Source of the DNA: Octopus sinensis
Taxonomy: Eukaryota
Length of the DNA: 7,831 nt
Direction: 5' to 3'
NCBI RefSeq assembly: GCF_006345805.1
Contig: NW_021828734.1
Span: 1 to 7,831, forward strand
Under the pieces are notes generated by a model. It was not told where the DNA came from, ran no database searches, and was given only the letters and a program-made list of their open reading frames with translations. The position numbers and the translations under genes are program-made. Shown piece by piece: positions 2,639 to 7,170 of the stretch (position 1 is its first letter; each line of letters opens with the position of its first letter).

Positions 2639-3350
2639 GACTTGAAGAACAGAGGCACTTATATGTGCAAAAGAAGAATAAGCTTTGCGGACAAACTATG
2701 GGAAGTGCAAAATTGAGAAAACAAACCGAGAGTGACAAATGTAGAATGTGTGAGAGGAGTGAAACGGCATGGCACATTGTTAGTAAAAATTCGGAATTGA
2801 CACAACGGAATACACAACGGTGATATGACAATGAGCCATTGGGAACTTTGTGGAAATTATGACCTAGAAAGATCAAAGACTTGGTATGACTAACTCCCAG
2901 AAGGAGTTAATGAGGATGAGGATTGCAAAATACTGTTGGATGCAATGATTCGGTGTAACCATCAAATTAGACATCGGAAACTTGACATTGTTATGGTGGA
3001 CAAAAAAACAACTTGTATGATAGTCGACATAGCTTGTCCCGATGACAACGTGTTCAAGGAGAAAGAAGAAGAAAAACTGAACAGCTATGATAATCTGAAG
3101 TGGGAAATAAGCAAACTGTGGACAATAAAGAAAGTGGACGTACCAGTGCCCAACTACAAAAGCGACTGAAAAAGTCTGGAACAAGTATAAAAATAGAACA
3201 CCCATAAAAATCATCATTGCTTGGAACTGAAAGAGTTCTCCGAAGGGTTCTTGAAGCATGATCAGTAAACAAGTGTCACCTTTGTCTGCTGGCTGTGGAC
3301 AGCTGACTCTTTCCAGCATACCCAGCATAATAAGCTGTGAGTTTTCATAT
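2639..3350 (+). mobile_element. 5'-truncated, decayed R4/Dong-like non-LTR retrotransposon (zinc knuckle, restriction-like endonuclease, 3'UTR)
   Basis: Translation across frameshifts: TEALICAKEE*ALRTNY; SDKCRMCERSETAWHIVS (CCHC knuckle from 2740, last Cys lost); R*YDN (RHD motif); KTWYD*LPEGV; RHRKLDIVMVDK..TCMIVDIACP..KEEEKLNSYDNL (PD..D RLE core, PD mutated to LD); LLGTERVLRRVLEA* (stop 3259-3261). Flanked by (TAA)n on both sides, the known Dong target. Confidence 0.9.
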
Positions 3351-3995: not shown

Positions 3996-4360
3996 TATGA
4001 AATCAACATATTATCGGGAAAGAAAGAGAAAAGATTGATAAATATGGAGACCTGAGAAATTAGATCGCTAAGATGTCGCAGCTACGAGAGTCAAACATAA
4101 AGGATGTCCCTGTTGTCATCGGAGCATTGAGTTCAATACATCCAGCCGGAGAACGTCTGGAAACTTTAGAAATACTCTACAATCTAGGTGTATTGCAAAA
4201 ATCGACATTACATGGAACTGCACGCATATTGCGTAAAGTACTGTCTGAGGTCCTTGTTGTGACCTGACAGACAGTACAAATCCCCCGTAGACACAATGTC
4301 TTCAATCAACAACATCACGATATTGGATGCTGTGCAACATCTTAAATAGAAATAATAATA
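3996..4360 (+). mobile_element. 3' end of a second, distinct R4/Dong-like retrotransposon
   Basis: KEREKIDKYGDLR / IAKMSQL..VPVVIGALSSI..LQKSTLHGTARILRKVLS is the typical RLE C-terminus, paralogous to 3060-3260. The 3'UTR is different and ends in aaataataata. Confidence 0.85.
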
Positions 4361-4554: not shown

Positions 4555-4798
4555 GTGCTGTCCCTACTCACTCAAGGCATCGTTCTGAGTTTTCTCTTGT
4601 TTGTCATAATGTCAAACACAAAAATAAAATCTGTCTCACTCGGCAGTTATATAGATAACACCAAAGTAATACGAAATATGAGAACAAATGACAGTGTCTA
4701 TGTCCTACAAGAAAATTTCGATCCCTTCCGCCCCGCATATACAACAGATTGAATGACGATAATACTTCGTTCAACTCTACAATATTCCATGTCTTCAA
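4555..4798 (+). pseudogene. Highly decayed reverse transcriptase fragment of an APE-type LINE (CR1/L2/Jockey group)
   Basis: TQGIVLSFLLFVI...SYIDNTKV...LQENFD corresponds to PQG.VLGPLLF...YADDTK...LQ.DLD. A shifted frame continues IYNRLNDDNTSFNSTIF, corresponding to W...N.M.FN..K. The catalytic YADD has decayed to YIDN. Confidence 0.65.
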
Positions 4799-5358
4799 GG
4801 CGGCGAGCTGGCAGAAACGTTAACACGCCGGTCGGAATGCTTAGCGGTATTTCGGCTGCCGTTACGTTCTGAGTTCAAATTCCGCCGAGGTCGACTTTGC
4901 CTTTCATCCTTTCGGGGTCGATTAAATAAGTACCAGTTACGCACTGGGGTCGATATAATCGACTTAATCTGTTTGTCTGTCATTGTCTGTCCTCTCTGTG
5001 TTTAGCCCCTTGTTCTGAGTTCAAATTCTGCCGAGATCAACTTTGCCTTTCATTCTTTCGGAGTCAATAAATTAAGTACCAGTTGCGTACTGGGGTCGAT
5101 GTAATCGACTTAATCCCTTTGTCTGTCCTTGTTTGTCTCCTCTATGTTTAGCTCCTTGTGGGCAATAAAGAAATAAGAAACGTTAGCACACCGGGCGAAA
5201 TGCTTAGCGGTATTTCGTCTGTCTTTATGTTCTGAGTTCAAATTCTGCCGGCGTCGACTTTACCTTTCATCCGTTCGGGGGCGGTAAATTAAGTACCAGT
5301 TGCGTACTGGGGTCGATCTAAAAATTTCGAGCCTCGTGCTTAGATCGGAGAAGAAAAG
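4799..5358 (+). mobile_element. Trimeric tRNA-derived SINE composite (units ~4799-5011, ~5012-5176, ~5177-5358)
   Basis: Head ggcggcgagctggcagaaacgtta (A-box-like). The block gttctgagttcaaatt(c/t)..gccg..gtcgactttgcctttcat..aagtaccagtt..actggggtcgat occurs three times. A-rich tail. Probable TSD at 4781-4798 and 5359-5377. Confidence 0.9.
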
Positions 5359-5985: not shown

Positions 5986-6050
5986 ACACACACACACACA
6001 CACACACAGACACACACACAAAATATATATATATATATGTGTGTGTGTTA

Positions 6051-6119
<69 letters not shown>

Positions 6120-6160
6120 TATATTATTTATATAATGTATATATATATATATATATATAT
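5836..6160. repeat. (TA)n/(CA)n/(TG)n microsatellite cluster
   Basis: Directly visible. Confidence 0.95.
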
Positions 6161-6293
6161 AAGAAAATAGTAAAGAGTGAAAAAACGACAGAAGGCTTAA
6201 ATGTTAAAAAATATATATATTTGTGTCAAAATGTCTGGAGAATATCGAAAAATTTTTTTCCTTTCCTTAAAATGACATAATTTCATAATTTTT

Positions 6294-6333
6294 AAAGAAA
6301 TACCGGTTTCGCGTGTAGCTTTTCAAATTTCTT
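6294..6333 (-). ncRNA. Mirror copy of the hammerhead motif with one extra U before the core
   Basis: Minus strand reads aagaaa-U-UUGAAAA-gcuacacgc-GAAA-ccgg-UA-uuucuu. The 1-nt insertion may disrupt the stem I register. Confidence 0.5.
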
Positions 6334-6334
6334 G

Positions 6335-6376
6335 TGAAGAAATTGAAAAGCTACACGCGAAACCGGTATTTCTTTA
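6335..6376 (+). ncRNA. Putative minimal type I hammerhead ribozyme, U3-A8 core variant
   Basis: Stem I (ug)aagaaa 6335-6342 with uuucuu(ua) 6369-6376; core UUGAAAA 6343-6349; stem II GC-uacac-GC 6350-6358; GAAA 6359-6362; palindromic stem III ACCGGU 6362-6367; GUA cleavage triplet ending at 6368. Confidence 0.7.
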
Positions 6377-6546
6377 AAATTATGAAATTATGTCATTTTA
6401 AGGAAAGGAAAAAAATTTTCCAATATTCTCCAGACATTTGACACAATATATATATATTTTTTAACATTTAAGCCTTCTGTCGTTTTTTCACTCTTTACTA
6501 TTTTCTTATATATTCACCCACGTGCTTTACCAAACAAACTTTCTTA

Positions 6547-6548
<2 letters not shown>

Positions 6549-6588
<40 letters not shown>

Positions 6589-6658
6589 ACGGGAAGCTTT
6601 ATGAAAATAGACAAAAGACGAAGGCAGGTGGAAAACAAACGAACATTGTATTACATAC

Positions 6659-6788: not shown

Positions 6789-7170
6789 GGAGGCGAGGCG
6801 CAATGGCCCAGTGGTTAGGGCATCGGACTCACGGTCCTAGGATCACGGTTTCGATTACCAGACCGGGCGCTTTGAGTGTTTATTGAGCGAAAGCATCTGA
6901 ATCTCCACGAGACTCCGGCAGTGGGTGGTGAACCCTGCTGTACTCTTTCACCACAACTATCTCTCACTCTTTCTTCCTGTTTCTGTTGTACCAGTATTTC
7001 AAAGGGCCAGCTTTGTCACACTCTGTGTTACACTGAATCTCCCCGAGAACTATGTTAAGGGCACACGTGTCTGTGGAGTGCTCAGCCACTTGCACGTTAA
7101 TTTCACGAGCAGGCCGTTCCATTGATCGGATAAACTGGAACCTTCGTCGTCGTAACCAACGGAGTACCAC
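6789..7170 (+). mobile_element. Near full-length tRNA-derived SINE (head loosely tRNA-Arg-like) with (ATAC)n tail to ~7222
   Basis: A-box TGGCCCAGTGG (6804-6814), B-box-like GGTTTCGATT (~6847-6856), ~300 bp GC-richer body, then a simple-repeat tail. Confidence 0.8.

Follow-up and report, generated by a model that had tools for sequence, protein, structure and literature searches.

Hammerhead ribozymes with a U3-A8 pair in the core have been described for Penelope-like retroelements (PLEs) by Cervera and De la Pena (2014, PMC4209133), who report about 1,300 matches to a U3-A8 descriptor in Schistosoma mansoni and in whose supplement the cores UUGAAAAA and UUGAAGAA are both tabulated for PLEs. 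The monomers of Penelope hammerheads show no cleavage and the dimers a slow one (PMC4209133; review PMC6765202), and dimer cleavage at low rates is also given for the small PLE hammerheads of Lunse, Weinberg and Breaker (2017, as covered in the review PMC6765202). Natural hammerheads with U3-A8 were active in vitro, and hammerheads with a short stem II were linked to support by pseudoknots, in the set of Perreault et al. (2011, PMC3088659). The hammerhead of a Poseidon element is protein-assisted, and insertion in vitro could do without it (PMC11167929). A CX2-5CxxC linker between the reverse transcriptase (RT) and the endonuclease (EN) is common to the Neptune and Nematis elements, and a tail of 30-40 bp on one end has been described for elements of this kind (PMC8557442).

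The window, i.e. the whole stretch of 7,831 nucleotides of Octopus sinensis DNA that was analysed, contains a minimal type I hammerhead at positions 6337-6374 of the plus strand, recognised by its parts and by a descriptor match and located in the right arm of a palindrome. The two strands of stem I are at 6337-6342 (5') and 6369-6374 (3'), the core U3-U4-G5-A6-A7-A8-A9 is at 6343-6349 and a stem II of 2 bp at 6350-6358, in which G10.1 (6350) pairs with C11.1 (6358) and C10.2 (6351) with G11.2 (6357) around the loop II UACAC (6352-6356). GAAA (6359-6362) and the stem III palindrome ACCGGU (6362-6367) follow, and A17 is at 6368, the predicted cut being directly 3' of A6368; all of these are on the plus strand. 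U4 G5 A6, A9, G12 A13 A14 A15.1, U16.1 and H17 are all present and ordered, positions 3 and 8 form a Watson-Crick pair (U-A), and positions 9 and 10.1 follow each other directly, without the extra base, which the homologous motifs L227 and L237 lack as well. Each part was located where the original prediction had placed it within 6335-6376, and in the same order.

The descriptor accepted C-G, U-A or U-G as the 3-8 pair and required a stem II of at least 2 bp opened by G-C, GAAA, a palindromic stem III, UH and a stem I of at least 5 bp. It matched the window once, at position 6343, and matched none of 1000 dinucleotide-shuffled windows. The folding energy of the 42-mer was not significantly different from that of shuffled sequences (z −0.86), and no hammerhead family was among the 89 matches, at E values up to 10, of an Rfam scan of the window, which represented microsatellite and hairpin artefacts. 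The 42-base motif is almost certainly a genuine minimal type I hammerhead motif of a Penelope-like element.

Stem I had been predicted to consist of six Watson-Crick pairs extended by a GU and a UA pair. The six pairs were found in register, but the outer two are a by-product of the palindrome junction, since the right arm begins at 6337 and U6335 and G6336 are bases of the left arm. Family copies have CAC immediately before stem I, where the window has bases of the other arm, and contig ends come loose behind 6337. The right arm has its six in-register pairs because it contains one U fewer than its subfamily, in which one unpaired U lies between stem I and the core. As an exact string, the hammerhead of the right arm occurs once in the genome, and the form with the extra U has 55 exact copies, the left arm of the window among them. 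Compared with the near copy L002, the right arm has four one-base homopolymer deletions and one insertion in about 180 nt, whereas the left arm differs at a single spot. This contrast between homopolymer indels in the right arm and a nearly clean left arm suggests a consensus (assembly) error, which is the likely origin of the one-base deletion behind the perfect stem I of the right arm; the deletion may instead be a private mutation, and no contig in the comparison crosses the junction of the two arms.

The right arm (6337-6548, plus strand) is the pseudo-LTR at the 3' end of a Penelope-like element, truncated on its 5' side and complete with its tail, and was delimited from copies which are 93-98 % identical over query positions 3-201. 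The tail of about 35 nt (6514-6548, plus strand) is absent from the inverted partner, a tail-less 5'-truncated copy at 6161-6337 on the minus strand which was defined by sequence comparison and forms the palindrome. This left arm carries a second hammerhead copy (6295-6333, minus strand) in the standard form of the subfamily, with the one unpaired U. The arms are flanked by (TA)n tracts at 6023-6160 (left) and 6549-6585 (right), the former being the likely insertion target, and 29 of 29 other best copies likewise end in (TA)n. Among inverted arm pairs in the genome the tail was on one arm only in 13 of 13 cases, the tailed arm having been selected by the query, and the spacing of the arms ranged from about 0.2 to several kb; such variable spacing points to truncation-inversion rather than to fixed terminal repeats. 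The window copy contains no ORF and is a dead-on-arrival insertion, consisting of two opposed ends, each truncated at its 5' side, that meet at 6337 within (TA)n.

Other repeats were also seen in the window. Related repeat pieces are present at 553-670 and 6591-6639, and the minus strand near 640-665 resembles stem II and GAAA of a further Penelope-type hammerhead that is truncated or decayed. Broken reading frames at 2642-3260 and about 4000-4250, which adjoin (TAA)n tracts, look to us like the 3' part of non-LTR elements that encode a restriction-like endonuclease. SINE-like repeats are found at 4795-5330, with units of 146 bp, and at 6790-7170, and a weak tRNA-like Rfam match, below threshold, is at 6804-6861.

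A search of the octopus genome with the repeat of the window gave 1655 candidates, of which 40 were scored; the top ones of these, the window aside, were 93-98 % identical. The core string has 803 exact copies in the genome (control 0). Other copies extend upstream by variable lengths into an ORF encoding RT and EN, and in the longer ones the hammerhead is about 145 nt downstream of the end of this RT-GIY-YIG ORF. One natural copy has an open frame of 850 amino acids (P0001), in which the RT domain (PF00078) scores 30.8 bits against a Pfam cut-off of 29.6 and contains a DKG motif, and in which a CX4CX2C linker lies between RT and EN. The C-terminal GIY-YIG domain (PF01541) is below the cut-off (E 0.069), with the motif visible and CxxC between its two motifs, and PF01541 is carried by many of the relatives of the protein (120 listed). 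The named relatives are from bivalves or bivalve-symbiont bins. Several Penelope-type proteins (P0029, P0044, P0050, P0088 and P0113) and the loci L216-L220 are filed under bacterial symbiont genomes or MAGs, where they are likely to be host DNA in the bins.

The locus L031 contains two direct hammerheads 3988 bp apart and in addition an inverted 5' copy. The original assignment to a Penelope-like family is borne out by the RT and GIY-YIG ORF upstream, the pseudo-LTR tandem, the inverted 5'-truncated copy and the tail on one end. The term retrozyme-like, which had been offered with it, does not apply, because the family has an RT/EN ORF and a repeat unit of about 4 kb (3988 bp), compared with non-coding tandem units of 150-450 bp. 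Judged from its conceptual translation, the host element is an endonuclease-bearing Penelope-like element whose linker fits Neptune or Nematis.

Homologous elements were fetched by protein alone, the motif not being used, and 16 of them had at least 150 nt of 3' sequence. Ten of the 16 have a sense-strand hammerhead, 83-447 nt downstream of the ORF match; one of these ten is weak and five were read by eye from a loose expression. The 3-8 pair is C3-G8 in eight, U3-A8 in one and U3·G8 in one, and ACCGGU is present in four. In L227, with 45 % protein identity, the 2-bp stem II and ACCGGU are as in the window, but the core has C3-G8 and the stem I of 8 bp is unrelated; the motif occurs there as two direct copies 3.7 kb apart. 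A further 73, more distant, loci gave 12 sense and 2 antisense matches, 2 of these with U3-A8. A related abundant PLE family (L050-L052, L119 and L120), whose motif is about 2 kb downstream of the ORF match, combines U3-A8 with a U10.1·U11.1 opening of stem II, and a U·U opening is common to the protein-found homologs L217, L228, L231, L234 and L235.

Stem I covariation among copies, which had been suggested as a check of the motif, was seen in an alignment of nine chosen rows from which bulged lineages were left out. Both sides changed in 7 of the 11 pairs, namely the 3-8 pair and all but one of the 7 pairs in stem I (0 of 500 shuffles), and G10.1-C11.1 was G-C in 9 of 9 rows; the two outside rows are from one metagenome and therefore amount essentially to one outside comparison. 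Within the genome, stem I of eight unrelated motif groups sums to 27 pairs, although three of the eight are without an in-register stem I; 14,833 mismatched strand pairings between the groups average 5.1 pairs and reach 16 at most. Since homologs that were found by protein share the fold with C3-G8 and with different stem I letters, U3-A8 is compensatory, as had been claimed, and by the sequence comparison the motif is homologous by descent to the canonical C3-G8 hammerheads of related elements.

Core variants in the genome were counted as raw pattern matches with stem III fixed as ACCGGU, using patterns which overlap partly and include chance and non-hammerhead matches. C3-G8 gave 145 matches (control 35) and U3-A8 with a base other than A at position 7 gave 3084 (control 47), to which the window's family adds 803; C3·A8 (312, control 44) and U3·G8 (340, control 43) both exceeded C3-G8, and strict Watson-Crick pairing of positions 3 and 8 is therefore not kept throughout this genome. 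The expectation that searches for CUGANGA would overlook most motifs of this kind held in this genome (145 C3-G8 against 3084 + 803 U3-A8). The mismatch and wobble forms of the 3-8 pair include coherent subfamilies neighbouring that of the window, beside which a C3·A8 subfamily exists. G at position 17 was found in 3 copies, whereas A, C or U stands there in 803 and 501 copies. A repeat whose start resembles the C3·A8 form (L117 and L118) has no stems.

An anchor downstream of the hammerhead had 944 matches, the first 95 of which were taken as an anchored set. The core was intact in 74 of these 95 copies, and 21 were truncated or mutated. The commonest and most abundant subfamily, with a perfect 7-bp stem I, accounted for 55 of the 74 intact cores. 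Another 8 were of the window's subfamily, in which a single U is unpaired at the junction, and the other 11 (11 of the 95 copies) had U3·G8 with the same stem I junction bulge. The unpaired U is shared by the window's subfamily and three neighbours. Preferential conservation of the core and stems among copies, which had been expected, was assessed in 66 of the 95 anchored copies (29 without an upstream match were dropped). Substitutions were fewer in the core (4/1254) than in the flanks (85/3498 and 89/5280), and about 0.003 per cell across the motif as against 0.017-0.024 in the flanks, but loop II was as low as the core (1/462). The comparison therefore does not single out the core, loop II being equally low and the flanks holding subfamily-diagnostic sites.

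In sister lineages the motif is mostly 110-240 nt downstream of the ORF match, loop II is varied, position 17 is A, C or U and the outer stem I pair is G-C, G·U or A-U; because it was the core pattern that led to these lineages, only their stems and the position of the motif count as independent evidence. An in-register stem I is also present in older lineages. Stem II has 2 bp in the window's family and 1 bp in some sister families, and its second pair is C-G or U-A in most. In a midpoint-rooted tree of 44 ORF-end rows, perfect-stem U3-A8 forms branch basally in a clade of 37 rows (99/99) and the bulged forms fall in a crown group (100/99), with the abundant perfect-stem subfamily mostly nested among them; L013 disrupts the simple nesting. 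Loss and then regain of the first stem I pair is suggested by this tree, the order of events being suggestive only with a midpoint root and no clade test. A hairpin of 11-12 bp, predicted by folding at 6369-6406 (plus strand), offers the 3' strand of stem I a competing pairing. It is limited to the youngest subfamilies, i.e. the crown group, which rules out a conserved downstream switch hairpin.

The computed fold of the monomer is marginal (−1.2 to −2.3 kcal/mol), and in a dimer joined through ACCGGU one centre has a computed energy of −11.5 to −12.7 kcal/mol. In local context the pairing probability of stem I is about 0.17 for the best subfamily and 0.05 for that of the window, and it is about 0 within the whole palindrome, the window being a near-perfect hairpin. 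Transcripts reading through both arms are predicted to fold as a long hairpin which buries the motif, and the window copy is therefore probably inert; activity of this copy in place is, on these models, very unlikely. Among the listed holders of the sequence none is on record as RNA, and one presumed-RNA contig which spans the predicted cut site is uninformative on RNA ends.

We consider with good confidence that the motif is best explained as the hammerhead of the 3' pseudo-LTR of an abundant Penelope-like element, likely cut as a dimer after A17, with the window copy probably inert. In tandem full-length transcripts two copies would pair via their ACCGGU palindromes and would then be cut after A17. 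Published Penelope work suggests that cleavage would be slow and dimer-dependent, perhaps needing the protein of the element, and that it would release RNA of unit length from tandem or read-through transcripts. Weak dimer cleavage by the main subfamily is somewhat favoured.

The same features could be read in other ways. A chance match within a fold-back (MITE-like) palindrome might be suspected from the near-perfect hairpin of the window, from the Rfam scan without a hammerhead and from the unique deletion needed for the perfect stem I, but no shuffled window of 1000 matched, the spacing of inverted arms is variable (about 0.2 to several kb), and canonical homologs exist. The canonical hammerheads of the protein-found homologs, together with the covariation, rule this explanation out, and its probability is negligible. 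Hardly more probable is a ribozyme of a non-autonomous tandem retrozyme: the window's family extends upstream into the RT/EN ORF, repeats at about 4 kb and differs in its stems from another tandem family, of 355-359 bp and likewise with ACCGGU in its hammerheads, whose presence in the genome is the point in favour of such an origin. It was ruled out by the linkage to the ORF, the end of which is upstream in 44 rows. The 355-359 bp repeat itself (L110-L116 and L037-L047, e.g. G000:C4:158033903-158034647) occurs as a tandem and inverted repeat and, from its sequence, looks like a non-LTR retrozyme; its hammerhead has a 4-bp stem II, a 6-bp stem I and ACCGGU-C, and all four 3/8 combinations are present. 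C7-G8 is a CpG, so that G8A in this repeat may begin as CpG decay.

More weight is due to the possibility that the motif descends from a hammerhead but has lost the need for cleavage in the young subfamilies, where it would be a decaying relic or be kept as a protein-binding or pairing site. This would be consistent with the U3·G8 and bulged-junction subfamilies (11 of the first 95 of 944 anchored copies), with the existence of a C3·A8 subfamily, with a stem II of 1 bp in some lineages and with the competing hairpin that arose in the crown group; hammerhead mutants left insertion in vitro unblocked (PMC11167929), and Naiad elements thrive without canonical hammerheads (PMC8557442). However, the commonest subfamily has a perfect 7-bp stem I (55 of the 74 anchored intact cores from these 95 copies), G17 is nearly absent, and substitutions are fewer in the motif than in its flanks, loop II being as low as the core. 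We therefore regard loss of the role of cleavage as rather unlikely, and prefer a Penelope-like hammerhead that is cut as a dimer. It is conceivable, as a tentative suggestion, that the genome keeps a natural allelic series (C3-G8, U3·G8, C3·A8 and U3-A8, with loss and apparent regain of the stem I pair 1.1), each member of which has been multiplied. The subfamily series is a ready panel for asking if the hammerhead is necessary to Penelope elements: a cleavage rate that follows the success of the subfamilies would directly demonstrate selection on the ribozyme in vivo, and an equal spread of dead variants would show that the ribozyme is dispensable.

Published work already covers the class of ribozyme, its host element and its U3-A8 core, and the ribozyme adds little to this. 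Novelty of the core, implied in the original prediction, has to be given up, because U3-A8 and the UUGAAAA core are reported for Penelope hammerheads in PMC4209133. No paper on cephalopod hammerheads of this clade was found in a search outside of which were the 2017 survey, most subscription papers and supplement 1 of PMC4209133. Searches with a canonical core would give a number of hammerheads that is many-fold too low for this genome (for the ACCGGU type, 145 C3-G8 as against several thousand U3-A8).

In the part of PMC4209133 compared, the minimal hammerheads of metazoan PLEs agree with the motif described here in being of type I, in their location in the pseudo-LTR, in the palindromic stem III, in G10.1-C11.1 and in U3-A8. 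The U3-A8 variant of S. mansoni belongs to Cercyon elements, the row S. mansoni 4 has the UUGAAAA string of the motif's core, U3·G8 is represented by Saccoglossus 1, and hammerhead pairs on opposite strands, 100-700 bp apart, are also reported. The octopus motif differs in its stem II, of 2 bp as against at least 3 bp in the PMC4209133 rows compared, and in lacking the extra base between positions 9 and 10.1, which is present in most of those rows and absent in a few. It also differs in the 6-nt palindrome of stem III and in that U3-A8 is the majority form among the ACCGGU-type motifs of the genome. Natural U3-A8 (C3U/G8A) covariation and a stem II that is often of 2 bp are shared with the hammerheads of Perreault et al. 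(2011, PMC3088659), and a short palindromic stem III with the PLE hammerheads of Lunse, Weinberg and Breaker (2017), as given in the review PMC6765202. The host element resembles Neptune and Nematis as described in PMC8557442, both in its protein, with the DKG motif in RT, the CX4CX2C linker and the C-terminal GIY-YIG with CxxC, and in its insertions, with inverted 5'-truncated copies, a tail of 30-40 bp and microsatellite targets.
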